Assembly: GCA_009781445.1 (NCBI GenBank)
Contig: WQYD01000002.1
Location: 17,792 to 81,791 of the forward strand
Direction of reading: 5' to 3'
From: Bacillota bacterium
GTDB taxonomy: Bacteria; Bacillota; Clostridia; Christensenellales; DTU072
Length of the DNA stretch: 64,000 nt
The translations under genes were made by a program, and so were the position numbers. Below the pieces are notes generated by a model. It was not told the origin of the DNA. It did not search any database and worked only from the letters and a program-made list of their open reading frames with translations. Shown here piece after piece: positions 10,049 through 63,004 of this stretch. Every line of letters starts with the position of its first letter. Position 1 is the first letter of the stretch.

Positions 10049-10240
10049 CAGCGCACAACGCACAGCGCACAATGAAGGAATTTTTTATTTAGGTACGAAG
10101 TACAAAGTACGAATTATGGATTAGTTAACCATATAATGAGATTTAGAATCCACCATTGTGCGCTGTGCGTTGTGCGCTGTGCGCTGACATAATGGGATTT
10201 AGATTCCAACCCTGCAACCTGAATCCTGCAACCTGCAACC
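10049..10240. repeat. Modular heptamer-array intergenic repeat cluster (4 modules) between convergent genes
   Basis: Reverse GTGCGCT-type array (10049-10083), reverse TCGTACT-type array, anchor ATATAATGAGATTTAGAATCC (10131-10151) with a GTGCGCT array, then anchor CATAATGGGATTTAGATTCC (10188-10207) with a CTGCAAC array that ends at the stop codon of the next gene. Confidence 0.9.
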
Positions 10241-13455: not shown

Positions 13456-13522
13456 TCTAAACCTCTTTTCATTTTAACCATTGAACTTTCCTTCTTTTTA
13501 AACCCTTAAACCTTCGTTCATT

Positions 13523-14335
13523 CTAAACCCCTGAAAACGCGGAAAATCCGCCGTCCACAGGAAGCACAACCCCTGTAACAAATCCGCTTTCGCTATCATT
13601 TGCCAAAAAATCCACCGCGCCAAGCAGTTCTTTTGCTTCGCCGAACCTGCCCATTGGTGTGTTTTTTAGGATTTTATCCGAACGCGCCGTTAAAGAACCG
13701 TCTTGGTTAAATAAAAGTGTCTTGTTTTGCGCAGTGGCAAAGAACCCAGGGGCGATTGCATTTACGCGGATTCCGCTTTTCGCAAAATACACGGCAAGCC
13801 ATTGCGTAAAGTTTGAAACCCCTGCTTTAGAAGCGGAATAGGCAGGAATTTTGGTAAGCGGTGCAAAAGCGTTCATGCTTGATATGTTAATAATTGCACC
13901 GCTTTTTTTGTCTGCCATGCTTTTTGCAAAAACTTGCGTGGTTAAAAATGTACCCATAAAGTTTAAATTGAACACAAAATCAACGCCGTCCTTCGTCAAT
14001 TCAAAAAAACTTTTTGCTTCGCGTTCGTACATTTCGCTATCGGTGGTAGCCATGGGGTTGTTACCGCCTGCGCCGTTAATTAGCACAGTGCAAGCCCCCA
14101 AATCCGCCGTAATTTTATCCCTTGCGCTTTCAAGCGAAGCCTTATTCAGAACATCGGCTTCGTATCCTTTGGCGGTAAATCCCTTTTGGTTCAATTCGCT
14201 TGCCAATCTGCAAACGCTGTCGCCGTTTTTGTCTATAAGTGCCACTTTATCACCGTTCATTGCAAAAAACCGTGCAATTTCACCGCACAAAACGCCACCC
14301 GCGCCCGTTATAACAATTACTCTTTCTTTTTTCAT
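13523..14335 (-). CDS. SDR family oxidoreductase, probably the SDR-type D-mannonate/fructuronate oxidoreductase
   Basis: VITGAGGVLCG (TGxxGxxG) and YSASKAG (YxxxK). It sits next to uxuA/uxaC, as UxuB-type SDRs do in Firmicutes. Shine-Dalgarno AGGGGGA. Confidence 0.75.
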   Translation of the reverse strand: MKKERVIVITGAGGVLCGEIARFFAMNGDKVALIDKNGDSVCRLASELNQKGFTAKGYEADVLNKASLESARDKITADLGACTVLINGAGGNNPMATTDSEMYEREAKSFFELTKDGVDFVFNLNFMGTFLTTQVFAKSMADKKSGAIINISSMNAFAPLTKIPAYSASKAGVSNFTQWLAVYFAKSGIRVNAIAPGFFATAQNKTLLFNQDGSLTARSDKILKNTPMGRFGEAKELLGAVDFLANDSESGFVTGVVLPVDGGFSAFSGV

Positions 14336-14355
14336 AATTATTTCCCCCTGAGGCT

Positions 14356-14500
14356 TAATTCAGAATTCAGAATTCAGAATGCAGAATTATGGATTAATTA
14401 ACTAATGAGATTTAGAATCCAACCCTGCAACCTGCATCCTGCAACCTGCCCCCTCAATAATGATATTTAGATTCCATAATTCGTACTTCGTACTTCTTAC
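14356..14500. repeat. Modular heptamer-array repeat cluster (3 modules) inside the uronate operon
   Basis: Reverse AATTCAG x3 plus AATGCAG array ending TTATGGATT; anchor ACTAATGAGATTTAGAATCC (14401-14420) with a CTGCAAC-type array; anchor AATAATGATATTTAGATTCC (14456-14475) with a TCGTACT-type array that abuts the uxuA stop. Confidence 0.9.
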
Positions 14501-15526
14501 TTAGCACCCTTCCCATAACCCCAATATATAAGTCGCGCCAAGCGCCCTGTCAAAAAGTCCGTAGCCGAACTTTCCTGTTTCGCCCCAAATCATTCTGCCG
14601 TGATCGGGGCGGATATATCCGTTAAATCCGCTTTGCTTTAATTCTTTCACTATTTCTGCCATATTTAGGCTTCCGCACGCGCTTGGGTGCGCGGTTTCGG
14701 TAAAATCCTTTTCATTGATAAGTTTAATGTTTCTTAAATGCGCAAAATGGATTCTTCCTTTTGCAATGCGGATAATTTCGCTTAAATCATTATCGCGCCC
14801 TGCGCCCAACGAACCTGCGCAAAAGGTTATGCCGTTATTAGTGCAATCCACCGCGGATAAAATCCTCTTTATAGAGGCTTTTCCTGTAACAATGCGGGGC
14901 AAGCCGAAAATTCCCCAAGGGGGATCGTCTGGGTGAATTGCCATATTTATGCCAACCTCTTTTGCCACGGGGATTACCTCACGCAGGAAGTTTTCAAGGT
15001 TTTTAAAAAGCCTTTCTTCGCTAATATCCGCATATTTATTTAAAAGTTCTTTTAATTGTTCCTTTGTGTAAGATTCGTCCCACCCCGGAAGTGAAAGCCC
15101 GCTTGTTAAAGGGTTCATATTAAGCACGGTTTCGTGATTATACGCAAGCGCGTGCGAACCGTCCTCAAGAGGCGAAGAAAGTTCGCTTCTAAGCCAATCA
15201 AACACAGGCATAAAGTTATAGCAAACGCATTTAATGCCAAATTTTGCAAGCCTTCTTAAATTTTCCTTATAATTCTCAATATATTGTTTTGCAGTCGCAA
15301 GCCCAAGTTTAATATCCTCATGCACAGGCACGCTTTCAATAACCTCGCAGGAAAGCCCCTTGTTGTGGCAGGCGGTAACAAGCCTTTTAATGCTTTCTTC
15401 AGCCCACACCGTGCCAACAGGCGTGTCATAAACGGCGGTAACCACGCCGTGAATGCAAGGTATTTGGCGAATCATATCAAGGGTAACCTTATCCGATTCG
15501 CCGTACCACCTGAATGTCATTTTCAT
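14501..15526 (-). CDS. uxuA: Mannonate dehydratase UxuA
   Basis: MKMTFRWYGESD N-terminus and overall UxuA-like sequence. The ATGA start/stop overlap with uxaC suggests translational coupling. Confidence 0.9.
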   Translation of the reverse strand: MKMTFRWYGESDKVTLDMIRQIPCIHGVVTAVYDTPVGTVWAEESIKRLVTACHNKGLSCEVIESVPVHEDIKLGLATAKQYIENYKENLRRLAKFGIKCVCYNFMPVFDWLRSELSSPLEDGSHALAYNHETVLNMNPLTSGLSLPGWDESYTKEQLKELLNKYADISEERLFKNLENFLREVIPVAKEVGINMAIHPDDPPWGIFGLPRIVTGKASIKRILSAVDCTNNGITFCAGSLGAGRDNDLSEIIRIAKGRIHFAHLRNIKLINEKDFTETAHPSACGSLNMAEIVKELKQSGFNGYIRPDHGRMIWGETGKFGYGLFDRALGATYILGLWEGC

Positions 15527-18536: not shown

Positions 18537-18547
18537 CTGTATTAAAT

Positions 18548-18586
18548 AATCCATAATTCTGCATTCTGAATTCTTAATTCTGAATT
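18548..18586. repeat. Heptamer-array module (AATCC + ATAATT + CTGCATT CTGAATT CTTAATT CTGAATT)
   Basis: Same array family as at 14356, 22251 and 2641. It lies in the eda/galE divergent region, directly upstream of the galE Shine-Dalgarno. Confidence 0.85.
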
Positions 18587-22220: not shown

Positions 22221-22340
22221 TCAGCGCACAGCGCACAGCGCACAATGAAGGATTAATTCAGAATTAAGAATTCAGAATGCAGAATTATGGATTAATTAAC
22301 TAATGAGATTTAGAATCCACCATTGTGCGCTGTGCGCTGA
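22221..22340. repeat. Modular heptamer-array repeat cluster in the divergent promoter region
   Basis: Reverse GTGCGCT x3 array (22221-22247), reverse CTGAATT-type array, linker TTAATTAAC, and anchor ACTAATGAGATTTAGAATCC (22299-22318) with a GTGCGCT x2 array (22321-22340) complementary to the first array. Confidence 0.9.
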
Positions 22341-22367
22341 AAACCCTGAAGTTGTGCCAAATAGTGC

Positions 22368-22397
22368 CGTATTCGGTTGCTATAGCAACCGAATACG
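22368..22397. other. Perfect 13-bp stem-loop (CGTATTCGGTTGC-tata-GCAACCGAATACG) of unknown role
   Basis: Seen directly and followed by CACTTTT. It lies between the divergent LRR and giant-operon promoters. Confidence 0.5.
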
Positions 22398-22475
22398 CAC
22401 TTTTAACACAACGCACACCCACCGTTCACACCCCCTCTTTTGGTGTAATTATAGTAAATACTATCTCTTACCTGC

Positions 22476-22504: not shown

Positions 22505-22571
22505 ATAAGCGTGCGCTACGGGGGCGCACCTTAAAATGTTTGCGAATATAGCGGATTCGCAGGAGAAATTA

Positions 22572-25500
22572 ATGAGAAACACAAAAAAACTTTTCAAATA
22601 CATAGCCTTGGTTTTGGCTCTGGTTGCGGTACTCAGCGTTATCGCAGGTTGCTCAAGGCTTGACGATGCGCGAAGCGACCCTGCGGGGAATATTCAGCAA
22701 ACCCCCACCGATCCCCCTTCTACCGACACGATTAATGTTGTAAGACCTACCGCCGCGCGCAACGCTATGAACGCGGCACTTCGCAACAGAACGAACAAAT
22801 ACGCCCCGAAGAACAATTTGCCCGAATGGTTCGTGATAGATTTGCAAATGGACTTTAGGATAGACAGATACGGCACCCCCTTAGTGCAAACCCCCACCTC
22901 AAGTTCGTCTATCAGGGTTATTTTGCAGGCGAATGTACATATTTTAAACAATAACTTCAGCGAACTTAAGCTTGAAATTTATAACAGAATTCCCACCACA
23001 ACGCAAACTTTTGCCCTTTATTATCTTGAAAAATCAGCCTACATTGAATTAGGCGCGCCCCAAGACAGGCAAAATTTTTACATAGAAGAAATTAACTTAT
23101 CCGAAGCCCTCGGCATGGTGGGCTTTATGCTTGCGGATATGGGCATAGATCCTGCTCAAATCTTTGCCGCAATGATGATTAGCACGCAAGCCACCTTAGT
23201 TCCCACGGGAATAGCGTTCTTGGATGAAGGTTTAATGGCGATTGTCGCAACGCAGATGTTTGATGCGGGGCCGAACAGTGCGCGCGAAAGAATCCGCAAT
23301 TCAGGCGGAACGGAAACGCGTGATTATGGGCTAAGGCTTACTCTTGCAGGGCTGCTTAACATGGTTGACGGCATGGATTTACTGGGCATTAAGATTGACC
23401 TTAAAAATATTTGGGGTATAATGGGCTTGCCGAATCTTGATCCGCTTTTAAATGAATTTATAGGCACGGACATAGGCGAAATCCTTAGCTTCTTGCGAAA
23501 TTCAGAGGACGCCTATATGTGGATGCTAACAAGCATGGAGGACGATGTTCCGAGGACGGAATGGAATGCGTCCGCGGGGCAACACCAAATCGTGTACGAC
23601 GGCGCAGGGCAAGCGGTTACGCACAAAGCCCCTGTGTACACGGGAATTGCGATAAACTTACCCGGCAGGAAAAGCCCCACTTATCCTAAGGGGCAATTTG
23701 ACATTGATATTTACGCGCCCTCGGTAAGGGCGTCCATGGCGGATAGAAAGACGCAAATTTGGTTTCCTGACAGGCTTACCGAAAGCGCAAAAGGCACTTC
23801 GTACCAAAAAGCAGGGCTTGGAAACCTTGAAATTGAGGGCGAATTCAGCATTCAAAGCGATCCTAACGGTGTAATCCGTTTAAATTCCGTACTCGGAACT
23901 ATGATTGATTTGGGCGGAATAGGCGAAATTCCGCTATATTTCCCCAAAGAAGGTGCGGTTTACACCTTCACAATGAATTTAAAACTCGCGCTTGATTTCT
24001 TTAATCCAAGCGGTACGCGCGCGGAGGCAATTATTTATTTTAACGATACGGATAACCCTCAGAACAAGCAACCCTTCCTTGCGCTGTCTATTGTTAACAA
24101 TAGGCTAATGATTGATTGTAGCAAACTTATAGATTTCGCAACTTACAAACAGCAAGCCCCCAACTTCGGGCAGGGGCAGGTTCCCCCTATTCCGCCGTGG
24201 CAGATTTTGCCTAACATTTCCATGGAATTTAGCATAAATTCCCTGCTTGACGGGCTTTTAGGCGGGCTTTCAAACATTTTAGATCCTAACTTTATCCGCT
24301 TGCCTATTGCACCGCAGAACAGCGCACCGCAGAACAATGCGGAAGAGGAATCGGGCGGGCTTGATATAATGCTTCTTATAAGCATTTTGGCAGGGCATTA
24401 CCAAGTGTATCCGCAAAGCGGAACTGAGAATTTAGTGCGCGTGTTTGTGGATAACAAGGGCATTAACGACATTCTAAGAATGCTTGGCATGGATGTGGGC
24501 AGTGGCGGTGTCGGCTTTTCTGAAATTGAATTTTCCATGTTTTCTAACGATCCGCTCAATACGATTGTTTTGCGCGCAGGCGTAACGGAAGAAGTTGATG
24601 TGGTTTTAAGGCTTACAAAATTCGGCTGGTTCAAACGCCCTGTGTTTGAAAACGCTTACATAAGCGATCTTGCGTTTGTGAACCTTGATGACGAACGGAT
24701 TCAGTTTATTAACCTTGAGGCTTCGGGATATTTCCAATTCGGAATCAATGAAACCAGTAGCGGAATCGTGCTTGATTTAGACGATATCGTGGGGGATATT
24801 CTTAGCAATGTAATGTTCTCACTCGGCGTAACCGAAAGTGCGGATTTCACGATAAGATATGATCTTAAAGCAGGAATTAACTTTAGAAACGCGCTTGAAT
24901 CGGGCTTATCCATAACTTTTTATATAAGCGATTTGCCCTTCCTCACCATTTATTTTGAAGCATCCTCGGATACGCTGTTCCTTGATTTTTCAAACCTCTC
25001 AAATTTGAAAACAGAGATAACCGCGCTTGCTTCCATAGGCACGATTGATAACATTAAGATAACAGGCGTGGGCATAAGTTCAATCTTAAGTTCGCTACCG
25101 CTTATAGGGGACGGCGGTTCAAACGCACCCAAAAATGCACCGATTCACCTATCTTCCACCCCTCAAGGCGTGGCGGTGGACGCACTTCTTAACTTAATTC
25201 TTGGCGCAAATCCCCTTTACTTCGCGCTTGCGAACGCAGATGCCGAAAATGAACCTGACGGCGGATTTGATTTAATGAGTTTGCTAATGGATGTTTTAGG
25301 GCAAGGCATAACGGTTGAGATCAATGACGAAATTAAATCCCTAATTATCCGTGCAGACGAAGATTTGCTTACAATCCTCGTTGCCATGCTTGGCGCAACG
25401 GCGAATATGCCCAAAATTGCATTTGCAATGAAACTTCAGCTTATCGGCGTGGGCGATCTTGACGATAACGGCTATATAAGCGTACACTTCAAGCTGTTTG

Positions 25501-28076
25501 ATGACGGCGCGGAAACGGCAATGCTTTTTGCGGATATCGTGCTGATTCAAACGGTAAGAATCCCTATTTCACGCACAGCCCCCGTTTATTTCCCCGGTTC
25601 GTTCACCCCTGGGGAATTTAAAGAACTTGACGATTATCTTGCTTCGCTTGTCCTTGCTTTCCACATTGAAGGCAACATTTCGGTGCTTGCGCCCGATAAT
25701 GATATTTACGAATCCGAACTTGTAAACGGAATGCTTGCAGGGATACTTCCCATGCTTGCAGTACGCTTCGGAATAGACGGCTTTTCAATAAACTTGCAGT
25801 ACGAACTGAAAATGATTGCGCATATTTCCGATGTTTTGGCAATTTTTAACGCAATTTCAGGCAGTGGCGAAGTTCCCGAACATTTAAATACCGAACTTTC
25901 AATCACCCTTTCGGATTTGGATTACGGCGGACGCGTGTTCGGGCTTTATATAATAGATAACAATGTTTATTTAGAACTTGATTACTTCGGTGTTGAAAAT
26001 GTTTCACTCAAAGGGGCAGGTTTATTCTTAAACGAACTGTTTAAAATGTTTGCCTCAGACGAAAGTGAACCTATAAATAAAGACGATCCCGAAAACCGTG
26101 CAATGTACCCCATTCCCTCTAACGGCGCAAGGTTTGGCACAGGCGCGGACGCGCTTCAAGGCATTGTGGTTCTGCTTTCGCCCGACAGAGTTGCTTTACA
26201 TATCGGCAAATCCGCAATTTCCGCCGTTCTCGCGCTAATGTTTGAGGATGGTTTACCCCTTGAAATCCACGGCATAAATCTTGCCGTTGATGTTTCAAGA
26301 GGCATAGCGTTAAGCATAAGCGTGGGCATTGAGGTTTTTGAAATCTCGCTTTCGCTTAGCGATTTATTTGTTTTATTTGAAAAAGATAAGCACATTGCAG
26401 GTAGCAATTATCCTGTGATAATGCTTCCTAACGATAGATTCCCCGTCCCAAGCGGGGACGGCGGAATGCCCGAATATGTGTACATTAAGTTTGAAGGCGA
26501 AATGTTTATAAGGGCAGATCAAACCGAATACGGTGACGATAGGATAATTATAAACACAAATATAAACCTTACCCCCGCCGTTAAAGCAATTTTCGGTGAG
26601 GATATTGATCTCATTGCATACCTTGAAATGCTTGGTGTGGTTGAGGGCAGAATTGCCATTGTTATTGAAGCCTCTTTAAATTTAACGCACTTTGTGAGAA
26701 GCGCGGCGCGGATTGAACTTTATTCGGGGGATACCACCCAAAATAACCGCATTTTAAGCGCGCAGTACAGAGGGCTTGAGAGGATTGATCCCGAAACAGG
26801 CGAACCAAGGGTTTACGGCGATTTATTTATAGATACAGACGCATTTGAACTCGGCAAACTTTGGGTGCAGGATGTGGGCGCGCTTATAAATGTGTTCCTT
26901 GGGCTTGAGGACAGGGATTTTGAATGGGGCGACATTGTGGGCGGTAACCCTTCCGCACCGCGCTATTCCCCTCTTTCTTCGGACGAAGTTATGGCTAAAA
27001 ATTACCTTGATATAATGTTTATCAGGGGCGGAATTTCGTTCGCGCTTACAAAAGGCTTGCTAACAGGCTTAATGCTAAGCCTCGGCGGATTTGATTTAAC
27101 CGAATTCTTTGAAAATGTGGGCGGACGCGATGAGGTTGTGTACGGCGAAATTCTAATTAGCCCCATAACCCTTGCACTCGGTGTTCACCTTGGCGGAATT
27201 GAAGCGGGGCTTAACCTCGGCAGGCCTGAATTAGTGTTTGAAAGGCTTGTGCCGATGCCCAGCGATATAGACGAATATACCCTGCTTTTAAGCCTTGAAA
27301 GGCTAAGCATAACCCTTAGCGGTGCTATTGATTTTGCGATTATTTCTGATCCTAACGGCACATATTTTGATCACATTGTGTTTGAAATAAAAGAAATGCT
27401 TGCTTTGTCAGGCACTTTTGATCAAGCACTGCTTGACAGTTTGCTGAACTTTGGCATAATCCTTCAAATTATTGCAGATTCATTCGGTGATACGCGCTTT
27501 GGCGGTGTTCTTAATTACGAAATAGAAGTTCATGTTAACTTGCTTGATATAATAGACGATTTATATCTTGCATTAAGGCTTTTTGTGTTAGACGGTGATT
27601 TCCGTACAGACATTTTGGGGCTTTATATAATGCCCGATCCCCGTGAAGGCGCAGGGCTTACCCTGCTTCTTGACGCGGAATTCCTTGGGATTGAAAAAAT
27701 CCGTGTTAACGATGTGTTCGGCTTTATTTCCGCATTCACAGGGGAAGACGGTTTAGAAAACGAACCAAACGGCACTGCCCCCAAGAACAGCGGTTTACCG
27801 CAACTGCCAAGAAACGCTTCCGCACCTGAAATTCTATCCGCCAATGTGCTGATAAGAATAGCCTCAGATCCTGCCCAAATCGCGCTTAACAAAAACGCGC
27901 CTATTCTCATAAGCATAACCGAAAGCGCGTTTTCCGCGTTGCTTGAATTTATGGATATGGGAAGCATTTTAAACCTGCTTGGGGTGCATAAGCCGTGGGC
28001 AGAAGTTTCGCTTGCAAGCGGTGATAGCCTGCTTTCCTTGGGCTTGGGCTTAAAGATTTGCTTTCGCTTACGGTAA
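22572..28076 (+). CDS. Giant modular lipoprotein, part 1 (signal peptide plus modules 1-6); probably the N-terminal portion of a protein of about 8,560 aa
   Basis: The ATG at 22572 follows AGGAGA. The signal reads MRNTKKLFKYIALVLALVAVLSVIAGCS (lipobox IAGC). It contains six copies of the unnamed module of about 300 aa (hydrophobic-Y/F-hydrophobic-D core at 23040, 24108, 24978, 25968, 26826, 27669). It stops at 28074-28076 in the middle of a module. Confidence 0.75.
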   Translation: MRNTKKLFKYIALVLALVAVLSVIAGCSRLDDARSDPAGNIQQTPTDPPSTDTINVVRPTAARNAMNAALRNRTNKYAPKNNLPEWFVIDLQMDFRIDRYGTPLVQTPTSSSSIRVILQANVHILNNNFSELKLEIYNRIPTTTQTFALYYLEKSAYIELGAPQDRQNFYIEEINLSEALGMVGFMLADMGIDPAQIFAAMMISTQATLVPTGIAFLDEGLMAIVATQMFDAGPNSARERIRNSGGTETRDYGLRLTLAGLLNMVDGMDLLGIKIDLKNIWGIMGLPNLDPLLNEFIGTDIGEILSFLRNSEDAYMWMLTSMEDDVPRTEWNASAGQHQIVYDGAGQAVTHKAPVYTGIAINLPGRKSPTYPKGQFDIDIYAPSVRASMADRKTQIWFPDRLTESAKGTSYQKAGLGNLEIEGEFSIQSDPNGVIRLNSVLGTMIDLGGIGEIPLYFPKEGAVYTFTMNLKLALDFFNPSGTRAEAIIYFNDTDNPQNKQPFLALSIVNNRLMIDCSKLIDFATYKQQAPNFGQGQVPPIPPWQILPNISMEFSINSLLDGLLGGLSNILDPNFIRLPIAPQNSAPQNNAEEESGGLDIMLLISILAGHYQVYPQSGTENLVRVFVDNKGINDILRMLGMDVGSGGVGFSEIEFSMFSNDPLNTIVLRAGVTEEVDVVLRLTKFGWFKRPVFENAYISDLAFVNLDDERIQFINLEASGYFQFGINETSSGIVLDLDDIVGDILSNVMFSLGVTESADFTIRYDLKAGINFRNALESGLSITFYISDLPFLTIYFEASSDTLFLDFSNLSNLKTEITALASIGTIDNIKITGVGISSILSSLPLIGDGGSNAPKNAPIHLSSTPQGVAVDALLNLILGANPLYFALANADAENEPDGGFDLMSLLMDVLGQGITVEINDEIKSLIIRADEDLLTILVAMLGATANMPKIAFAMKLQLIGVGDLDDNGYISVHFKLFDDGAETAMLFADIVLIQTVRIPISRTAPVYFPGSFTPGEFKELDDYLASLVLAFHIEGNISVLAPDNDIYESELVNGMLAGILPMLAVRFGIDGFSINLQYELKMIAHISDVLAIFNAISGSGEVPEHLNTELSITLSDLDYGGRVFGLYIIDNNVYLELDYFGVENVSLKGAGLFLNELFKMFASDESEPINKDDPENRAMYPIPSNGARFGTGADALQGIVVLLSPDRVALHIGKSAISAVLALMFEDGLPLEIHGINLAVDVSRGIALSISVGIEVFEISLSLSDLFVLFEKDKHIAGSNYPVIMLPNDRFPVPSGDGGMPEYVYIKFEGEMFIRADQTEYGDDRIIINTNINLTPAVKAIFGEDIDLIAYLEMLGVVEGRIAIVIEASLNLTHFVRSAARIELYSGDTTQNNRILSAQYRGLERIDPETGEPRVYGDLFIDTDAFELGKLWVQDVGALINVFLGLEDRDFEWGDIVGGNPSAPRYSPLSSDEVMAKNYLDIMFIRGGISFALTKGLLTGLMLSLGGFDLTEFFENVGGRDEVVYGEILISPITLALGVHLGGIEAGLNLGRPELVFERLVPMPSDIDEYTLLLSLERLSITLSGAIDFAIISDPNGTYFDHIVFEIKEMLALSGTFDQALLDSLLNFGIILQIIADSFGDTRFGGVLNYEIEVHVNLLDIIDDLYLALRLFVLDGDFRTDILGLYIMPDPREGAGLTLLLDAEFLGIEKIRVNDVFGFISAFTGEDGLENEPNGTAPKNSGLPQLPRNASAPEILSANVLIRIASDPAQIALNKNAPILISITESAFSALLEFMDMGSILNLLGVHKPWAEVSLASGDSLLSLGLGLKICFRLR

Positions 28077-53336: not shown

Positions 53337-53520
53337 AATTAAGATTAAAATGCGTAACGCATGAAGATATGAAGACGCTACGCTTGTGAAGACGGCTTCG
53401 CCTTATGAAGTGCAGGCAAGCCTGCATGGTGGATTATTATATATAAATATTCCGCAATTCGTACTTCGTACCTTGTACTTCGTACTTCTAAATAATGATA
53501 TTTAGAATCCGCCACTATAC
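53337..53520. repeat. Composite intergenic repeat: short hairpin/ATGAAG units, TCGTACT-type array, anchor plus ATACCCT array
   Basis: TGCGTaACGCA and TGCAGGcaagCCTGCA hairpins are interleaved with (T)ATGAAG(A) x4. Then ATTCC GCAAT TCGTACT TCGTACC TTGTACT TCGTACT, followed by anchor AATAATGATATTTAGAATCC (53491-53510) and ATACCCT ATACCCC. Confidence 0.8.
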
Positions 53521-53632
53521 CCTATACCCCAAAAAAACAAATTCACTCGGTAGCATAAATTCGGTGGCGGAAATGTATTCGCCCGCTTCAACTGTTTTAC
53601 ATTAAAAACTTAGAAATTTTTTAGCCAACCTA

Positions 53633-53667: not shown

Positions 53668-54015
53668 ATGAAACGACTTTTTGTTAGCACAAGCATATTT
53701 GATAAGGATTGGGAATTTCTTAACCTTAGGGATAAAGAACTTAAATTGCTACAAGAAACTATATTGTACGACCCAAAGCAAGCGCCAGTAATTCAAAAAA
53801 CGGGCGGGCTTCGCAAAATGCGCTTTCCGCTTCCAAACAGGGGCAAGAGCGGAAGCATTAGGGTGATTTATGCAGACTTTGAAGAATTTGAGATTACTTT
53901 CCTAATTACGGTTTATGCTAAAAACGAAATGGACAATATTAGTGAAGAGCAAAGGGTAAAACTAAAACGCTTGTATGACGAACTAAAGAATGTTTTAAAA
54001 GGGGGCAGAAAATGA
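53668..54015 (+). CDS. Type II toxin, RelE/HigB-like (toxin-first gene order)
   Basis: 115-aa ORF with GGLRKMRFPLPNRGKSGSIRVIYADF ... ITFLITVYAKNEMDNISEEQ, the pattern of RelE-superfamily (PF06296-like) toxins. It overlaps the antitoxin by 4 nt. Confidence 0.75.
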   Translation: MKRLFVSTSIFDKDWEFLNLRDKELKLLQETILYDPKQAPVIQKTGGLRKMRFPLPNRGKSGSIRVIYADFEEFEITFLITVYAKNEMDNISEEQRVKLKRLYDELKNVLKGGRK

Positions 54016-54314
54016 ACATAGGCGATAAAATACAAAAAGGGCTTGAAGAAGCAATAGAATTTGCAAAAGGCAACACAAAATTAAAAACAACAACGCGCGC
54101 AATACCAGATGTTAGGTGTTTTTCTGCTACCGAAGTAAAAGAACTTAGGGAACATTTGGGTTACACGCAATTTGCTTTTGCAAAAATGCTTGGTGTTTCA
54201 AATAAAACCGTTGAAGCATGGGAAAGCGGGAAAAACACACCAAGCGGTTCGTCAAGCCGTTTATTAGAATTGTGGCAAAACAGCCCCGATATGATGATTA
54301 GGGCTTTCGCATAA
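54012..54314 (+). CDS. XRE-family HTH antitoxin (HigA/MqsA-C-terminal-like)
   Basis: 100-aa ORF. LREHLGYTQFAFAKMLGVSNKTVEAWESGKNTPSGSSSRLL is a classic XRE helix-turn-helix. It is translationally coupled to the toxin. Confidence 0.75.
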   Translation: MNIGDKIQKGLEEAIEFAKGNTKLKTTTRAIPDVRCFSATEVKELREHLGYTQFAFAKMLGVSNKTVEAWESGKNTPSGSSSRLLELWQNSPDMMIRAFA

Positions 54315-54480
54315 AGCGCATTAAATGCGTTGCAGTTAAATTCACTTCGTGAGTGAAATTTGCCTTACGGCAAGTGTAGGATAAAATCCCAAATAGAACC
54401 CCAAAGGGGTGAAATGTGCATAACCCCGTGCAAGCGGTAGCGTAGCACGGGGCAAGACAAAGAAACACGGATAGAAACAC

Positions 54481-54519
54481 AAAACCCCCCTTTCTGCCGT
54501 TGGCAGAAAGGGGGGTTTT
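54481..54519. terminator. Strong bidirectional rho-independent terminator
   Basis: AAAACCCCCCTTTCTGCC-gt-TGGCAGAAAGGGGGGTTTT is an 18-bp perfect stem with T-runs on both strands. Confidence 0.75.
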
Positions 54520-54553
54520 GATTTGTGTGGGTTAGCTGTGCAAATCGCGCCTG

Positions 54554-54700
54554 CCGTGGGTTTCACCCACGGTTATGCATATCCTGCCCGCTACGGGGCA
54601 GTTACGGATATATAGTATGTTGGCTTGCTTTCCGCTTTGATGTGCCGTGGGTTGCACCCACGGTTATGCACATTAAGCCCCCATGGGGCTTTATGCGATT
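54554..54700. repeat. Hairpin-type intergenic repeats (GC hairpin plus TTATGCA-like tail), 4 units
   Basis: CCGTGGGTttcACCCACGGTTATGCATAT (54554-54582) and CCGTGGGTtgcACCCACGGTTATGCACAT (54645-54673) differ at 2 nt. Each is followed by a second hairpin (CTGCCCgctacgGGGCAG TTACGGAT; AAGCCCCcatGGGGCTT TATGCGATT). Confidence 0.8.
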
Positions 54701-54704
54701 AACT

Positions 54705-54890
54705 AATAATGAGATTTAGAATCCGCCATGTTTCTCGTTTATCGTTTCATGTTTCACTTTTCATTTGGGGCTTAATGCGGATAAATCAATAATGAGATTT
54801 AGAATCCACCCCTGCAACCCGAATCCTGCAACCTGAATCCTCAATAATGATATTTAGAATCCACCATTGTGCGCTGTGCATTGTGCGCTG
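54705..54890. repeat. Modular heptamer-array repeat cluster (3 anchor-plus-array modules, direct orientation)
   Basis: Anchors are at 54705-54724 (GTTTCAT-type array), 54787-54807 (CTGCAAC-type array) and 54843-54862 (GTGCGCT-type array). Confidence 0.9.
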
Positions 54891-54894
54891 TGAG

Positions 54895-55449
54895 TTATTT
54901 AATGCTTTGCATTAAATAAACAAATTCACTTGGCAACATAAACGGCACAGCAGAAAGATAAGTATCTACTTCAGTTGTTTTTTGGAAAAGGCTTTCAAAT
55001 AGCTTTAAATCTGTGTTAAAAATTATTGTGTTTGCTTTGGGGATTGCGTACGCTTCCAAGAGTTCCACGATTTCTTTAATAATCTTGCCTTTATATAAGG
55101 AAAGAGAATCTTCCTTTAAAAAGTTTATTACCGTGGTTTCCGAAAAGGGTTCTTCGCCGTTAAGCAGTGTAACGCTTGCCGTATTATCCTTTATTGTAAC
55201 TTCTATATTCGCGTAGTCAAAATCCTGCTTGGGAAAGGTTTTAAAAAGAATTTCATAATTAAGTTTATTGCAAAAATCCTTATCGCAGGCAAGGCGGATT
55301 CCGCTTTCGGTTTCTTTATCTGTTAAAAACTTTTTATCAAGACGCGAAATCGGCAGGGCAGGGCAGATAATTTTGCACCTTCCGCAAACCCCCGTGCCAC
55401 CGCAGGGCAGGGCTATACCCTTATTTAAAATATCTTCTTTAAGTTTCAT
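54895..55449 (-). CDS. 2Fe-2S ferredoxin-like domain protein
   Basis: 184-aa ORF with a Cys motif PCGGTGVCGRCKI ... IRLACD resembling plant-type/RACo-type [2Fe-2S] domains. The C-terminal part is unassigned. Confidence 0.55.
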   Translation of the reverse strand: MKLKEDILNKGIALPCGGTGVCGRCKIICPALPISRLDKKFLTDKETESGIRLACDKDFCNKLNYEILFKTFPKQDFDYANIEVTIKDNTASVTLLNGEEPFSETTVINFLKEDSLSLYKGKIIKEIVELLEAYAIPKANTIIFNTDLKLFESLFQKTTEVDTYLSAVPFMLPSEFVYLMQSIK

Positions 55450-58001: not shown

Positions 58002-58159
58002 GACTGAGTATCCTCACATTTGTGCATCGGCAAATTTCGCCGTACAAGAATTATAACATATAGTTAATATAATATGCAATACTTAAAGTTAAAGAATATA
58101 TAACTGTATATAAGGGAAAAGTTGGTGTATACAGGGTAAAAATTGGCAATAATCAGGCA

Positions 58160-58709: not shown

Positions 58710-60791
58710 ATGAACAATAATAAAAGAGCAGTTTTTGTTGTGGCACTGATAGTGGTAGCTGTTATACTGCTTGTGATAATAATCCCGTCCACAAGGGCTA
58801 AAGTTGATGTTATTTCTTACAGCGAAGTAATTGAAAAACTTGATCCTGCTTACACCCCCACCGCCGAAGATAAAAACGGCGATATTATTAACGATAGGAT
58901 TATAGGAATATACTTCACTTCAAGCTACGAAATCAATGTGCTTTATGCAAAAGACATAGCAAATCTTGACGAATTTAAAAAAGGCAATAAGCCCTCTGCC
59001 AAAAGCATGGTTACCTATAGGGATAACCTTATGCGCACGGTGGAAAATCTTTACGAGGGTGATTTAGAAAATCTTCCCTTTATCCGCTTGAATGATCCCA
59101 ATGCTAACAGCTTTTTAAGCTATCTTTTCCCTGTGTTAACGCTTGTGATTTTGCTTGTGTTGGGTGTGGTGATATTCATGTCTATCCGTGGCGGAAAGGG
59201 CGGAAACACCGCAATGTCTTTCGGAAAATCTAAAGCAAGAGTGGCTTCACAAATCAAGATAAGGTTTAACGATGTGGCAGGCGCGGAAGAAGAAAAGGAA
59301 GAACTTAAAGAAATCGTGGAATTTCTAAAAACCCCAAAAAAGTTCCGACAAGTGGGCGCACGGATACCCAAAGGCGTACTTTTGGTGGGAAGCCCCGGCA
59401 CAGGCAAGACGCTTTTTGCCAAAGCAGTGGCAGGTGAAGCCAATGTTCCTTTCTTCTCAATAAGCGGTTCAGACTTCGTGGAAATGTTCGTGGGTGTTGG
59501 CGCATCAAGGGTGCGCGATTTGTTCGCCCAAGCAAAAAGAAACCAACCTTGCATAGTGTTTATAGACGAAATTGACGCAGTGGGCAGAAAGCGCGGTGCA
59601 GGGCTTGGCGGTGGCAATGACGAACGCGAACAAACGCTTAATCAGCTACTTGTGCAAATGGACGGATTTGACGAAAATGAAAGCATAGTTATCATGGCGG
59701 CAACCAACCGCGCCGATGTTTTAGATCCCGCACTTCTTCGCCCCGGCAGGTTTGACAGGCAGATTTATGTGAATATGCCCGATGTGGCAGGCAGAGAAGG
59801 AATCTTCCGCGTTCACAGCAAAAATAAGCCTTTGTCGGCGGATATTGATTTTAAAAACCTTGCAAGAATCACCACTGGTTTCAGCGGTGCGGATATAGAA
59901 AACCTTTTAAACGAAGCTGCGATTCTTGCCGCGAGGGACGATAGGCAAATTATCCTAATGAAGGATATAACCGAAGGTATCAATAAGGTTATCGCAGGAC
60001 CTCAAAAGCGTTCGCGCGTTATAACGGAAAGGGACAGACGGCTAACAGCCTATCATGAAGCTGGGCATGCAATTGTGGCAAGATGCTTAAAATATTGTGA
60101 CGATGTGCAGGAAGTTTCCATAATTCCGCGCGGAATGGCAGGCGGTTACACCCTTTCACGCCCCAAAACAGACGATAATTATATGACTAAAAACCGCTTA
60201 AATGACGAAATTGCCATGATGCTTGGCGGTAGGGCGGCGGAAGAGATTATTATTCAGGATATATCCACAGGCGCGTCCTCAGATTTAAAGCGTTCCACAG
60301 GAATCGCAAGGCAAATGGTTGTGGAATGGGGTATGAGTGATGAGCTTCCCAATATCTTCTTCGGCGGTGAGCAGGAAGTATTTATAGGAAGAGATTATCA
60401 AACCCAAGCACTTTACAGCGAAAGCGTGGCTTCTGTAATTGATAGGGAAATGCGCAAGATAATTGATTTAAATTACGGCAGAGCCATTAGAATCCTTAAA
60501 GAAAAGGTGGAAATCATGCACAGCCTTGTAAAGCTGTTATTTGCCCACGAAACCATTTACGGTGACGAACTTGATCTAATCTTAGAAGGAAAATCCGTTA
60601 GCGAAGTTACCGAATATATAGGCGAAAAGAAGCGCGAACAAGAGCGCATAGCCGAAGAAAGGCGCAAAGCAATAGAGCTTGCAGAACAAGCCTTGCGTGA
60701 AGCCAAAGCACAAGCGGAACTTCAAGCCACGCTTAAGAATATGCAGGTAGCAGTGAAGCAGGAAAGCCAAGACGAAGAAACTAAAAACTAA
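58710..60791 (+). CDS. ftsH: ATP-dependent zinc metalloprotease FtsH
   Basis: Walker A GSPGTGKT, Walker [12 protein letters not shown] region, and HEAGHA zinc motif. The start is set at the ATG at 58710 after GAGGAAG. Confidence 0.95.
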
Positions 60792-61050
60792 TCAGCGCAC
60801 AGCGCACAACGCACAATGAAGGAATTATTTTTCAGCGCACAACGCACAGCGCACAGCGCACAATGAAGGATCAATTAACTAATAATGAGATTTAGAATCC
60901 ACCCCTGTATCCTGCACCCTGCAACCTGCATCCTCAATAATGATATTTAGAATCCACCATTGTGCGCTGTGCGCTGTGCGTTGTGCGCTGACATATAATG
61001 AGATTTAGAATCCATAATTTGTATTTCATATTTCATATTTTATATTTTCT
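60792..61050. repeat. Largest modular heptamer-array repeat cluster (2 reverse arrays plus 3 anchor-and-array modules)
   Basis: Reverse GTGCGCT-type arrays are at 60792-60826 and 60832-60870. Anchors are at 60881-60900 (CTGCAAC type), 60936-60955 (GTGCGCT type) and 60994-61013 (CATATTT type). Confidence 0.9.
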
Positions 61051-61117
61051 CTTAACTTTCAGTAATAATCCGTCCACTTACGAAATAAGATATAATAAAC
61101 ATTCCGGAGGTTAATTT

Positions 61118-61603
61118 ATGAAGGCTAATAAAAAGAAAATTATAGTGCTTGTGTCTATGGTGTTGCTACTTGTGGGAACGGGCGTATTAAATTATTTTCT
61201 TAACACTAATGTCCCTGTAAACAGCGGACAGGGCAGCGGTAGCAGCGTAACAGTTCCAACATTTTTTGAAATGTTCAGAAGCGAAAGGGTGGTAACGCGT
61301 CAAGCGGAAATTGATGCGCTTAACGAAATTATAGACGCCACCAACTCAACCGAAGCTATGATAGACGAAGCGCGCGAAATCAAAATGGCACTTGCACGAT
61401 CCATTGATACCGAATTCGCTATTGAAACGCTTATCAAGGCAAAAGGTATGCCAGACGCGGTTGTTACCATAACTAAAAACAATGTGTATGTTGTGGTTCA
61501 AAAAGCAGAACTTTCGCTTGAAGAATCCATTCAAATCCTTAACATTATCACCACAGAAACGGATTACACAGCAGAAGACATTGTGGTTTACCCTTATGTT
61601 TAA
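61118..61603 (+). CDS. SpoIIIAH-like sporulation protein
   Basis: N-terminal TM, then FFEMFRSER ... ETLIKAKGMPDAVVTITKNNVYVVV ... DIVVYPY, which aligns by eye with the C-terminal YscJ/FliF-like domain of B. subtilis SpoIIIAH. Shine-Dalgarno GGAGG. Confidence 0.6.
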   Translation: MKANKKKIIVLVSMVLLLVGTGVLNYFLNTNVPVNSGQGSGSSVTVPTFFEMFRSERVVTRQAEIDALNEIIDATNSTEAMIDEAREIKMALARSIDTEFAIETLIKAKGMPDAVVTITKNNVYVVVQKAELSLEESIQILNIITTETDYTAEDIVVYPYV

Positions 61604-61623
61604 TGCTTGAAGCTAAAGCTATG

Positions 61624-61668
61624 AAAATTCCGCCCTGCAAAAATGATTGCAGGGCGGAATTTTTTAAT
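61624..61668 (+). terminator. Rho-independent terminator
   Basis: AAAATTCCGCCCTGCA-aaaatgat-TGCAGGGCGGAATTTT followed by TTTAATT. Confidence 0.8.
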
Positions 61669-61692
61669 TCAGAATTCAGAATTATGAATTAA
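61665..61692. repeat. Short heptamer-array module (AATTCAG x2 ending TTATGAATT)
   Basis: Same array family as at 14356 and 2641, in reverse orientation and without a full anchor. Confidence 0.6.
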
Positions 61693-61705
61693 TTCTAAAT
61701 TCATT

Positions 61706-61733
61706 TTGAAATTAACTTCCGATAGTTTATAAT
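61706..61733 (+). promoter_or_regulatory. Candidate hisS promoter TTGAAA-16 nt-TATAAT, 8 nt upstream of the ATG
   Basis: TTGAAA is at 61706-61711 and TATAAT at 61728-61733. No Shine-Dalgarno precedes the ATG at 61742. Confidence 0.45.
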
Positions 61734-61741
61734 GGATAATA

Positions 61742-63004
61742 ATGAATATCCCCAAAGGCACTAAAGATGTACTGCCACAAGATAGCCATAAGTGGCAATT
61801 AATTGAAAACACCGCACGATTTGTGGCGGGGGTTTTTGGTTTTAAGGAAATTAGGACGCCCACTTTTGAACACACTGAGGTGTTTTTGCGCGGTGTGGGT
61901 GAAACCACGGATATCGTGAATAAGGAAATGTATACCTTTCTTGATAAGGGGGATAGAAGTATCACCCTAAAGCCTGAAGGCACGGCAGGTTCGGCGAGAA
62001 GCTATATTGAGAATAATTTGGGCGAGGTTTTGCCTAAGCCGTTAAAAATGTTTTACATTACGCCTGTGTTCAGATACGAACGCCCCCAAGCAGGACGGTT
62101 GAGAGAACACCACCAATTCGGCGCGGAAAGCTACGGAAGCGGAAGTGCTTATGCAGACGCCGAAGCCATTTTGCTTGCAAAATATTTTCTTGAAAGCCTT
62201 GGGATTACCGCCCTTGAATTAAATATTAACAGCATTGGTTGCAAATCCTGCCGTGCTGAATATAACGGTGCGCTTAAGAAATATCTTGAAAGCCGTCTTG
62301 CCGATATGTGCGCGCAGTGCCGTGAAAGGTTTGAAAAAAATCCTTTAAGAATCCTTGATTGCAAAAATGATTCTTGCAAAAAAATTACAGCTTCAGCACC
62401 CCAAACGCTGAATTTTCTTTGCGCGGATTGCGGTGAACACCACAAAAAACTTAAAACCGCGCTTACCGCTTGCGGTGTTAAATTTTTAGAAAACCCCAGT
62501 ATCGTGAGGGGGCTTGATTATTACACACGCACGGTGTTTGAATTTATTTCAACTTCAATCGGCGCGCAAGGCACGGTGTGCGGTGGCGGAAGATATAACC
62601 ACCTAATTGAATCCTTGGGCGGAAAAGAAACCCCTGCGGTGGGGTTCGGAATGGGAATTGAACGCTTGATTATGGTGCTTGAAAGCCTAAATATTCCTAT
62701 CGGTGAGGAACTTAAGCCCGATTTATATATCGCGCCTCTTGGCGGTGAAAAGGAATATCTTAAAGCGTTTACCCTTGTGAAAGAATTGCGCGATAAGGGG
62801 ATTTCCGCCGAAACGGACATTGCGGAAAGAGGGCTAAAAGCCCAAATGAAATTTGCGGATAAGATAGGGGCGCGCTTTGTGATTGTGCTTGGCGAATCCG
62901 AAACTTTAAGCGGAAAAGCAAAAATTAAGGATATGCAAAGCGGAAACGAAACGGAAGTTTCCCTAAAAGATATAAGCGGAATATTAACCGTAGTAAACAG
63001 CTAA
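61742..63004 (+). CDS. hisS: Histidine--tRNA ligase HisS
   Basis: PKGTKDVLP N-terminus, class II aaRS motifs (YITPVFRYERPQAGRLREHHQFG; GGGRYN), 420 aa. Confidence 0.95.
   Translation: MNIPKGTKDVLPQDSHKWQLIENTARFVAGVFGFKEIRTPTFEHTEVFLRGVGETTDIVNKEMYTFLDKGDRSITLKPEGTAGSARSYIENNLGEVLPKPLKMFYITPVFRYERPQAGRLREHHQFGAESYGSGSAYADAEAILLAKYFLESLGITALELNINSIGCKSCRAEYNGALKKYLESRLADMCAQCRERFEKNPLRILDCKNDSCKKITASAPQTLNFLCADCGEHHKKLKTALTACGVKFLENPSIVRGLDYYTRTVFEFISTSIGAQGTVCGGGRYNHLIESLGGKETPAVGFGMGIERLIMVLESLNIPIGEELKPDLYIAPLGGEKEYLKAFTLVKELRDKGISAETDIAERGLKAQMKFADKIGARFVIVLGESETLSGKAKIKDMQSGNETEVSLKDISGILTVVNS

Follow-up and report, generated by a model that had tools for sequence, protein, structure and literature searches.

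A family of headed heptamer repeats in the intergenic DNA of an uncultured Clostridia-type bacterium

Introduction

In the 64,000-nt stretch analysed here (the window; assembly GCA_009781445.1, contig WQYD01000002.1, positions 17,792 to 81,791), the gap between the stop codon of ftsH (60791) and a spoIIIAH-like gene (61118) is occupied from 60792 to 61050 by closely packed short repeats. What kind of element are these repeats, and how may they have arisen? A first-pass annotation, made from the letters of the window alone, regarded them as members of a modular family in which a 20-nt anchor is followed by interchangeable tandem heptamers. The analysis presented here finds a genuine, non-chance family of dispersed modular repeats, built from oriented units in which a conserved head is followed, in register, by a heptamer body, and assembled into clusters whose heads face a common centre. 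The explanation to which we give about an even chance is a lineage-specific mosaic of selfish or near-neutral elements, similar to BIME and STRR repeats, which has been diversified by slippage and homogenised by template switching.

The data consisted of the window, 7.3 kb to its left (L031) and 9 kb to its right (L018 and L027), in total 80 kb of one uncultured genome; the extension was reached by looking up window proteins and following them to overlapping contigs. The host encodes SpoIIIAH-like and SpoIIE proteins. The next relative of the SpoIIIAH-like protein is 56% identical, and some more distant matches are labelled as metagenome-assembled genomes of Clostridia or Christensenellaceae. 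The host is an uncultured sporulating bacterium of Clostridia type and gut type.

Occurrence of the repeats

With the anchor AATAATGAKATTTAGAWTCC as the query, 13 matches at three mismatches or fewer were found in the window, compared with none in 100 dinucleotide-preserving shuffles. Twelve are on the forward strand (10132, 10188, 14401, 14456, 22299, 53491, 54705, 54788, 54843, 60881, 60936, and 60994) and one, with no mismatch, is on the reverse strand (2672-2691). A profile search built from the other copies added a degenerate copy on the reverse strand (2245-2261; E = 0.003). The fourteen copies first counted are therefore thirteen plus a degenerate fourteenth, and two of the coordinates given for them (10131 and 54787) were off by one.

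Tandem Repeats Finder placed period-7 arrays of 2-6 copies at every site where the first-pass annotation had reported heptamers. In an X-drop scan of the window, period 7 gave 19 arrays and period 14, its multiple, gave 14, while every other period from 2 to 13 gave none or one. The intergenic DNA, which measures 3,853 nt or about 6% of the window once one over-extended open reading frame (ORF) is corrected to the true start given by NCBI protein P0230, contains all 19 period-7 arrays. Intergenic pieces shuffled 500 times contained a mean of 0.016 and a maximum of one such array. With 13 anchor matches against none and 19 arrays against 0.016 expected, the proposal of a dispersed modular family that is not due to chance is borne out.

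The clusters together amount to about 1.31 kb, in agreement with the earlier figure of some 1.3 kb, and make up roughly one third of the intergenic DNA of the window. There are 26 units in the window (14 on the forward and 12 on the reverse strand), every one of them intergenic, and 36 in the 80 kb, where about 14 chromosomal clusters share no common gene context. The statement that the repeats are always intergenic thus holds for the window; it fails 6-7 kb to the left of it, where two clusters lie inside one ORF, as discussed below. Similar density of the anchor in coding regions was not found: the sole coding-region match above noise is a look-alike at 25695 (E = 0.006) with no heptamers behind it. 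Further copies do exist outside the window, at the L027 and L031 loci and on a metagenome contig (L019). To the right, the long head recurs at 66261 and 67335 (window coordinates), flanking nrdR and the gene of RNase P RNA. The latter is a class A RNase P RNA gene at L027:6098-6421 (273.6 bits), with a type 1 array fragment upstream and a terminator downstream that is directly followed by a long-head type 3 unit in reverse orientation.

An assembly artefact is ruled out, since independent assemblies and samples agree. Clusters C to F and the right two thirds of cluster K (lettered from left to right, with coordinates given below) have the identical sequence in a separate ENA assembly, and the ENA contigs match the window exactly wherever the two overlap. 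The two assemblies are taken as independent because of a 1-nt difference implied at a giant gene. In the window, two overlapping giant ORFs (22536-28076 and 28058-48256; 1846 and 6732 aa) stand where the ENA annotation has a single gene of 8573 aa (22536-48256), which implies a 1-nt indel or a frameshift near a CTTGGG repeat of 2.5 copies at 28037-28051. ENA and Logan contigs begin or end exactly at repeat clusters: an ENA contig ends just beyond cluster F, a Logan contig of another run starts inside the array of cluster G, and Logan contigs from two other runs start right at the edge of cluster L. It is the heptamer clusters that fragment assemblies of this lineage.

Anatomy of a unit

Read head-first, a unit is oriented and consists of a head ending in TCC, a heptamer body, and a type-specific tail. 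In the focal cluster K, two reverse units are succeeded by three forward units.

60792-60828, reverse strand: three CAGCGCA heptamers and CAATGAAGGAATT (unit L1a)
60833-60880, reverse strand: four CAGCGCA/CAACGCA heptamers and CAATGAAGGATC, then the centre AATTAAC (unit L1b)
60881-60935, forward strand: long head, ACCCCTG, and four CCTGNAN heptamers (type 2)
60936-60990, forward strand: long head, ACCATTG, and four TGCGCTG heptamers (type 1)
60994-61050, forward strand: long head, ATAATTT, and four ATATTTC heptamers (type 5)

The heptamers begin at the base directly after TCC and stay in a 7-nt register. The body is composed of a first, degenerate heptamer and three to five units that follow it. 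Degenerate first heptamers are ACCATTG, TTCATTG, ATAATTC, ACCCCTG, GCCATGT, GCCACTA, ACCCCTA, and ACCTCTC, and their last three or four bases are the same as in the following units. What had been taken for a linker of 4-6 nt after the anchor is this first heptamer. Recurrent tails are AAAAAG in type 3, CCTC-AAT in type 2, and CTGA(A/C)A in type 1. Being a head with direct heptamers, a single unit is not self-complementary, and inverted pairs occur only between units.

The head has a short and a long form. Short heads are AATAATCC-like or read ACTAATCC, AATTAATCC, or AATAATTCC, and the short head (AATAATCC or AATTCC form) is the universal one. The long head is the 20-nt anchor, that is, a short head plus 12 nt, GAGATTTAGAAT, placed between two AAT triplets, and of the genomes sampled only this one has it. 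The anchor is therefore real but is not the fixed part of the family for which it had been mistaken. Likewise, the joints of the form ATG(N0-3)GGA(A/T)T that had been described between arrays lacking a full anchor are mostly opposite-strand units, of which nearly all have a short head; the one at 18548 is a forward short-head unit.

There are at least nine types of heptamer: TGCGCTG, CCTGCAA, TTCTGAA, TTCGTAC, ATATTTC, GTTTCAT, CTATACC/CCTATGC, CGTAAGT, and TCTCGTC (types 1 to 9 in this order). One-base intermediates join the types, for example from TTCGTAC through TTCTTAC and TTCTTAA to TTCTGAA, and CCTGAAT units are found within CCTGCAA arrays. Certain neighbours recur together, such as a type 2 array with CCTC followed by a T-type anchor. 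The picture of unrelated cassettes that are freely shuffled does not fit such intermediates and recurring combinations, or arrays that continue the head in register.

Because anchors in clusters E, F, J, and K recur at intervals of 55, 56, 58, and 55 nt, and those on L019 at 55 and 48 nt, a degenerate CRISPR-like or processed array was considered, with 20-nt repeats spaced 55-58 nt apart and 35-nt 'spacers'. This is extremely improbable. The 'spacers' consist of heptamer arrays of low complexity that are found again at other loci, there are at most three or four units per array scattered over 10 gaps, the repeat is non-palindromic and only 20 nt long, against 23-50 nt in CRISPR arrays, and neither a cas gene among the proteins scanned in the 80 kb nor an Rfam CRISPR-DR match was found. 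By these properties a CRISPR array is effectively refuted. Integron attC sites and coding mini-ORFs were also rejected, since 7 is not divisible by 3 and the arrays are stop-free in some frames only.

Two strand asymmetries were seen. The first unit of type 1 is strand-specific, being ACCATTG in 5 of 5 forward copies and TTCATTG in 6 of 6 reverse copies. Long heads, of which there are 16, are on the forward strand in 12 cases and on the reverse strand in 4. GC skew follows gene orientation only, and the 12:4 bias is not assignable to the leading or the lagging strand.

Cluster polarity and hairpins

In a cluster, reverse units lie to the left and forward units to the right, so that the heads face the centre and the arrays extend away from it. 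Orientation switches eight times within clusters of the 80 kb, in every case with heads facing and never the other way round (sign test, p ~0.004). Orientation changes at most once per cluster and does not alternate, and the motifs of centre and head are conserved (GGATT-AATTAAC-TAAT...), the usual centre being GGAT(T/C)-A(A/G)TTAAC followed by a long head. Long inverted repeats result where the outermost reverse unit matches the outermost forward unit in type, a palindromic organisation that is absent from the earlier description. The complementary outer arms give stems of 26-35 bp.

Cluster K, 60824-60871 with 60952-60999: 48 nt, 92% complementary; a core of 33 nt is perfect and contains the variant CAACGCA/TGCGTTG; RNA fold -93.5 kcal/mol, z -10.0; DNA fold z -9.9
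Cluster E, 10049-10079 with 10149-10179: 31 nt, 94% complementary, with the CAACGCA variant in both arms; RNA fold -81.3 kcal/mol, z -9.5
Cluster H, 22229 with 22314: 26 nt, 92% complementary, 20 nt of it perfect; RNA fold -51.8 kcal/mol, z -8.4
ecfA cluster, AGAGACG with TCTCGTC (type 9): 31 nt of perfect complementarity
ecfA cluster B: RNA fold -76.3 kcal/mol, z -8.3
Cluster F, mRNA sense: RNA fold z -2.5, weakly structured

The fold of cluster F is weak because its arms are of different types. The strand-specific first units leave a conserved 2x2 internal loop in the type 1 hairpins. Rare variant heptamers are common to both arms of one locus, as with CAACGCA/TGCGTTG at K and E, and the variant CAATGCA/TGCATTG is present in both arms of cluster M, displaced by one unit. 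In a scan for promoter and terminator consensus sequences, nothing above chance was seen inside cluster K.

Stems of this kind suggest a role in RNA, in which they would be selected as RNase III sites, 3'-end stabilisers, or insulators, and the arms would be kept by compensatory selection. The stems are very stable and stand right behind stop codons or between cistrons, the paired variants in the two arms look compensatory, and REP and BIME elements have such RNA roles in enterobacteria. However, strong stems are formed by type 1 and type 9 pairs only, cluster F is weak, and single or tandem units have no partner. No U-tract follows the stems and no terminator was called. The conserved 2x2 mismatch pairs better on the strand opposite to ftsH, the heads are conserved although they are located in loops, and the shared variant of cluster M is one unit out of register, which fits arm-to-arm copying better than selection on base pairs. 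Selection for RNA structure is a distinctly improbable origin of the family.

The same hairpins could instead be the substrate of an enzyme. As a non-autonomous element of REPIN or MITE kind, the hairpin of a reverse and a forward unit might be mobilised in trans, in single-stranded form, by a Y1 transposase (IS200/IS605, RAYT-type) or another transposase encoded elsewhere, with the heptamer arms as the hairpin that the enzyme needs; both the scheme and this use of the arms are somewhat unlikely. The arms do resemble terminal inverted repeats, hairpins of single-stranded DNA are predicted to be very stable, hairpins with the same variant units occur at the separate loci K and E, and each unit has a definite head and tail. 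Type 1 hairpins are all oriented alike on the chromosome (ACCA arm forward and TTCA arm reverse, 11 of 11 units) and most long heads are on the forward strand; transposons that move as single-stranded DNA show this kind of strand bias. On the other side, no target-site duplication or constant flank was seen at the cluster edges, and interiors differ despite identical arms (the centre and a type 2 unit in K, a reverse type 4 unit and the centre in E, and H too). Many units are single or in head-to-tail tandem and so have no partner (G, I, J, and L019), one enzyme would need to recognise at least nine arm sequences, and the scanned proteins of the 80 kb include no transposase.

Gene surroundings of the clusters

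The clusters are restricted to gene boundaries. Besides K, the window contains the following.

Cluster C, 2211-2320, reverse strand, two reverse units directly behind the truA stop codon
2211-2264: type 5 array with the degenerate long head TTGAGTGAGATTTAGAATCC
2270-2320: type 8 array (CGTAAGT-like) with the short head AAACAATTCC
Cluster D, 2577-2691, reverse strand, 5' of a 2433-aa gene: two tandem 46-nt copies of a GC-rich 15-mer with a type 3 array
Cluster E, 10049-10241, two reverse then two forward units, convergent gap between the 2433-aa gene (stop 10039) and a reverse-strand gene (10241-11206)
10049-10090: type 1, reverse
10093-10127: type 4, reverse
10132-10186: long head and type 1
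10188-10241: long head and type 2
Cluster F, 14354-14502, one reverse then two forward units, in a reverse-strand uronate operon between uxuA (stop 14501-14503) and an SDR gene (start 14335)
14354-14400: type 3, reverse, short head
14401-14455: long head and type 2
14456-14502: long head and type 4
Cluster G, 18544-18586, forward strand, single unit: short head AATAATCC, ATAATTC, and four TGMATTC heptamers
Cluster H, 22222-22339, two reverse units then one forward unit, divergent gap between an LRR_5 gene (NCBI start ~22023, reverse strand) and the giant gene at 22536 (forward strand)
22222-22254: type 1, reverse
22255-22298: type 3, reverse
22299-22339: long head and type 1
Cluster I, 53445-53531, forward strand, two forward units upstream of a relE/HTH pair
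53445-53488: short head AAATATTCC and type 4 (four TTCGTAC)
53491-53531: long head and type 7 (two CTATACC)
Cluster J, 54705-54892, forward strand, three forward units
54705-54770: long head and type 6 (GTTTCAT-like)
54788-54842: long head and type 2
54843-54892: long head and type 1 (TGCATTG variant)
Cluster L, 61666-61712, reverse strand, single type 3 unit (AATTCAG, 2.5 copies) with a variant long head (reverse complement AATGAATTTAGAATTAATTC)

The neighbouring genes are ordinary chromosomal genes: truA, uxuA, uxaC, a kinase, and KDPG aldolase (uronate catabolism), ftsH, the spoIIIAH-like gene, hisS, and thioredoxin, and also genes of giant surface proteins. Arrays touch or overlap five stop codons, namely those of truA (2211), the gene ending at 10241, uxuA (14501), ftsH (60791), and nifU (L027:5366). 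The TGA of truA (2211-2213) is part of the first heptamer of cluster C, the end of the array in cluster E overlaps the stop codon of the reverse-strand gene 10241-11206, the last heptamer of cluster F overlaps the uxuA stop, and cluster J ends 2 nt from the stop codon of a reverse-strand gene (54895-55449). In cluster D, the second copy is joined to the perfect long head at 2672-2691 on the reverse strand (Tandem Repeats Finder: period 46, 2.0 copies, 91%). The long perfect stems predicted behind essential genes such as ftsH and nifU would likely affect the fate of the mRNA.

Three type 3 units end, in sense, at ribosome-binding sites (18544-18586; 14400-14354 on the reverse strand; L027:6722-6775). 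The AAAAAG tail of cluster G runs into the ribosome-binding site of an epimerase gene (ATG 18601), and the unit at L027:6722-6775 is nearly identical to this one; the reverse type 3 unit of cluster F stops, in mRNA sense, 19 nt before the SDR start. Such placement raises the possibility that the arrays act in cis, with 3-5 contiguous heptads serving as cooperative sites for a DNA-binding protein or an RNA-binding translational regulator, and the head as a site of nucleation or positioning. Firmicutes offer a precedent in the omega heptads of pSM19035 (PMC9499535), and the TAACTGA heptamers of Beggiatoaceae are found just upstream of start codons (PMC4679880). The exclusive 7-nt period and the conserved head would also be easier to explain if heptads were measured. 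Yet binding arrays are an unlikely explanation overall. The nine or more unrelated-looking heptamers would need many proteins or a reader blind to sequence, and none matches WATCACW. Units are also located at 3' ends, in convergent gaps, antisense in an operon, and inside an ORF, next to no common class of gene. No candidate binding protein was identified, and the arrays differ between two related genomes at a comparable site upstream of hisS.

Cluster L comes immediately behind the spoIIIAH-like gene's intrinsic terminator and borders on a promoter-like TTGAAA..TATAAT of hisS. An identical 35-nt segment, AAATTCATTTTGAAATTAACTTCCGATAGTTTATA, is present at 61697-61731 of the window and at L031:3811-3845; in the window it provides the TTGAAA of the -35 and most of the TATAAT of the -10 element upstream of hisS. 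A 16-mer of the segment, ATTCATTTTGAAATTA, is present at the hisS promoter of a related contig (L026).

A second dispersed repeat, a GC-rich string of hairpins about 220-300 nt long, is located at 54392-54700 of the window and on the reverse strand at L027:6510-6720. About 220 nt of it form the centre of cluster N on L027, and the second copy is immediately left of cluster J. Its hairpins include AACCCCAAAGGGGT, CCCCGTGC..GCACGGGG, and TGCCGTGGGTTNCACCCACGGTTATGCAYAT, and the window copy contains the last of these two times. A perfect hairpin stands at one position of both copies, but in unrelated sequence; the string has no Rfam match. A relE-like toxin and a helix-turn-helix (HTH) antitoxin (53668-54314) are bracketed by clusters I and J and this string, and the pair may be a small inserted island.

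Near cluster H, the true start of the LRR_5 gene is 74 codons downstream of the TTG start of its ORF, as given by NCBI protein P0230. A homologue search with this protein brought up no paralogues from other contigs of the same genome. Further short direct repeats precede genes of surface proteins and of small hypothetical proteins (regions 22340-22400 of the window, L027:8860-8940, and L027:7230-7330): motifs GTGCCAAA at a spacing of about 11-12 nt before the LRR_5 gene and the giant gene, and three copies of TTCCACAAAAAGTRCA before a 147-aa gene. These direct repeats are possible binding sites of regulators.

In-frame clusters in the ecfA genes

The two short-head clusters 6-7 kb left of the window lie inside one continuous ORF (L031:103-1782; about -7160 to -5480 in window coordinates), in which ecfA1 and ecfA2 are read together. 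According to NCBIfam, the first ECF ATPase ends at residue 182 and the second spans residues 218-489/500. The clusters correspond exactly to a linker of 33 residues between ecfA1 and ecfA2 and to a C-terminal tail of 59 residues that extends as far as the ATGA overlap with ecfT, and the peptides predicted from the repeats include QNSEFRIQNEGNIDNNSTPMPYALCPMPSPIPS and RDERRETRDEIRNNN... Both clusters are stop-free in the frame that is used; of the other five frames, none is open in the larger cluster and one in the smaller. Shuffled versions of the two clusters were stop-free at rates of 0.19 and 0.018. Judged from the reading frame, low-complexity peptides derived from the repeats would have been put into an essential transporter ATPase. 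The ancestral ecf gaps may have been tiny, as they are in a compact relative (L030), with insertions arriving at gene boundaries and only those compatible with the genes surviving.

Distribution in relatives and databases

In the nearest relative (L026; 14.4 kb; HisS 72% identical), heptamer arrays are present in 5 of 7 intergenic gaps and again begin right behind stop codons. The build recurs in one of these arrays (AATTCC ACCACTA TTCAATA TTAAATA ...), and in one cluster the heads face each other, but the heptamers are otherwise different and the 12-nt block is missing. At the comparable site upstream of hisS, the array differs between this relative and the present genome. About 62 kb from five more distant relatives contained no arrays at the same threshold. 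Among the sequences sampled, the heptamer habit is therefore common to a narrow clade and the 20-nt anchor specific to this genome.

A search of metagenome contigs for a pattern of two anchors gave a single match, L019, a 1-kb contig from another JGI metagenome with 3.5 tandem type 2 units that end about 20 nt before a gene start. That the scan gave this contig alone shows the lineage to be rare. In genome contigs, the 18-nt anchor had at least 17 single chance matches in unrelated phyla, with no heptamers behind those listed; viral contigs gave two chance matches and no sign of a phage origin, and a plasmid similarity search gave low-complexity matches only. Rfam had no match in the window at the gathering threshold; at a relaxed E-value, all matches in 60750-61780 were far below threshold, and on the flanking loci only RNase P RNA and a tRNA were found. 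No description of such elements was met in the literature, including that on Firmicutes/Bacillota. The view that the repeats belong to no named family is thus upheld by both Rfam and the literature searched. Neither a transposase (Y1 included) nor a cas gene was present among the proteins scanned, which cover most, not all, of the genes of the 80 kb; the earlier remark that the window has no transposase agrees with this for the proteins scanned, most of those in the window.

Comparison with known repeat systems

The 7-nt period had been considered unusual; however, intergenic heptamer arrays are recurrent and unexplained in bacteria (PMC4692102, PMC4679880, PMC2700814). The record goes back to 1990 for cyanobacteria, with Xanthomonas, Geobacter, and Beggiatoaceae added later, and the origin and function of the arrays have not been explained. 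Examples are the STRR of Calothrix and Nostoc, GGGAATC in Xanthomonas, and GGGGAYT in Nostoc, inverted pairs included (PMC4692102), and GGGACCG and MTYCTGA in Geobacter (PMC2700814), of which MTYCTGA resembles the ATTCTGA type seen here. As in these systems, the present arrays are short tandems of 7 nt, nearly all intergenic and of several types per genome, some of them in inverted pairs able to form stem-loops (here types 1 and 9); length and sequence vary between close relatives, the taxonomic distribution is sporadic, and the function is unexplained. STRR are, by contrast, plain arrays of heterocystous cyanobacteria, whereas every array here is in register with a conserved head and has a defined tail. 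The strict heads-facing polarity, the modules that lie in frame at gene junctions, and the sporulating Bacillota host also set the present family apart from the earlier heptamer repeats.

REP, BIME, and REPIN elements (PMC3116915, PMC3733652) are likewise small extragenic repeats at 3' ends and between cistrons, forming mosaic clusters of a few motif types with conserved linkers, with long hairpins from inverted pairs, at which contigs break. Their unit is, however, an imperfect palindrome of about 20-40 nt, unlike the non-palindromic unit found here. Orientation alternates in them, whereas here there is at most one switch per cluster and hairpins come only from two opposed units. The GTAG/CGTC tag of REP and REPIN elements is not visible at the heads or tails, and the scan of proteins from the 80 kb gave no RAYT. 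MITE have terminal inverted repeats, target-site duplications, and a constant interior, whereas only the arms are seen here. Very small mobile dispersed repeats of Nostoc (SDR), 21-27 nt long, were reportedly described by Elhai et al. in 2008. The 12-nt GAGATTTAGAAT behaves in a similar manner, as a tiny insert in some copies of an identical context, but it is shorter than any SDR, and either insertion or deletion between the AAT repeats is possible.

The parS sites and operators of pSM19035 are composed of 7-10 contiguous 7-bp repeats, with one omega dimer per heptad and at least four contiguous heptads needed (PMC9499535). Omega is a ribbon-helix-helix (RHH) protein acting as ParB. Both systems have contiguous 7-bp repeats in a Firmicute setting, 3-5 units being typical here, and both direct and inverted arrangements are functional in the plasmid (PMC9499535). 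They differ in that omega has one consensus, WATCACW, at six plasmid sites, located at the regulator's promoters, whereas at least nine heptamers are found here in about 14 clusters at housekeeping loci. In Beggiatoaceae, TAACTGA occurs in 2-6 copies, mostly intergenic and many within a few nt of a start codon, in sense, and an RNA-binding translational regulator was proposed (PMC4679880). Type 3 units and an AAACTG array of L026 also end near gene starts; TAACTGA is nevertheless a single heptamer of another phylum, with no conserved head and no hairpin clusters.

Overall, the present family is genuine, and it represents an unusual variant within a repeat type that is poorly understood. A conserved head in register, a strict polarity, and arms that copy each other's variants have not been described for earlier heptamer systems, and these rules turn a vague class of 'simple repeats' into a structured, testable element. 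The family also shows how far a compact genome can be invaded, with about one third of its intergenic DNA occupied, stop codons overlapped, and in-frame linkers in fused ecfA genes.

A possible origin of the clusters

The mosaic origin proposed at the outset may be described as follows. Whole units would be copied and clusters would pile up around a centre, with heads inward and arrays outward; the spread of whole units and of the 12-nt head insert would take place by some copy process. Bodies may then diversify and change length through replication slippage, while the two arms of a locus would be kept identical by hairpin-templated (quasipalindrome) template switching. Selection would remove only the insertions that damage genes. 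Side effects like those of BIME are likely: stems of 26-35 bp in RNA or DNA, located at 3' ends or between cistrons, could act as stabilisers, processing sites, or roadblocks.

Slippage is supported by the one-base intermediates between types and by the different arrays at a comparable site in the relative. Polymerase slippage has been proposed for heptamers, the most abundant long simple repeat in many prokaryotes (Mrazek 2007, as reported in PMC4679880). Quasipalindrome template switching is a documented process (PMC7202029); the rare variants shared by the arms of one locus are as it predicts, and it also explains the out-of-register variant of cluster M. A selective filter would explain why clusters butt on stop codons and ribosome-binding sites and are stop-free in frame where genes were overlapped.

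Several observations weigh against this origin. Across its 16 copies the long head is 85-100% identical, whereas most positions vary in the arrays behind it; if neutrality were pure, so conserved a head would require either a very recent spread or selection on it. No insertion polymorphism was seen, all ENA, Logan, and window sequences being identical, so that mobility is something we infer only. No mobilising enzyme is known for the family. The polarity rule, the strand-specific first unit of type 1, and the 12:4 bias are not predicted by slippage and drift. Type 3 units stand right at ribosome-binding sites in 3 of about 10 cases, a placement that could reflect function. Because the mosaic model leaves the conserved head, the polarity, the strand-specific first unit, and the 12:4 bias unexplained, three rival explanations are kept alive.

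In a further scheme, which is rather improbable, the cell would have machinery devoted to building or maintaining the arrays, and this machinery would measure steps of seven from the TCC head. It could be a reiterative polymerase or recombinase primed by the head, or else an RHH-like protein that binds heptads cooperatively and through its footprint selects the period. If true, this scheme would account for the in-register start, the exclusive 7-nt period, the polarity, and a conserved head with diverging bodies, and it would offer a first mechanistic handle on heptamers as the dominant long simple repeat in prokaryotes.

Other repeats in the window

Two further tandem repeats were noted. At 13441-13530, in a short gap between two reverse-strand genes of the uronate operon, there are 17- and 25-nt tandem repeats (TTCATTTAAACCCTTAAACCTTCC, 2.5 copies), which are non-heptameric and unrelated to the anchor family. 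A 21-nt direct repeat, TGTATACAAGGGAAAAATTGG, is present in two copies (80% identical) at 58105-58146, immediately upstream of a DUF1256 gene at 58160.

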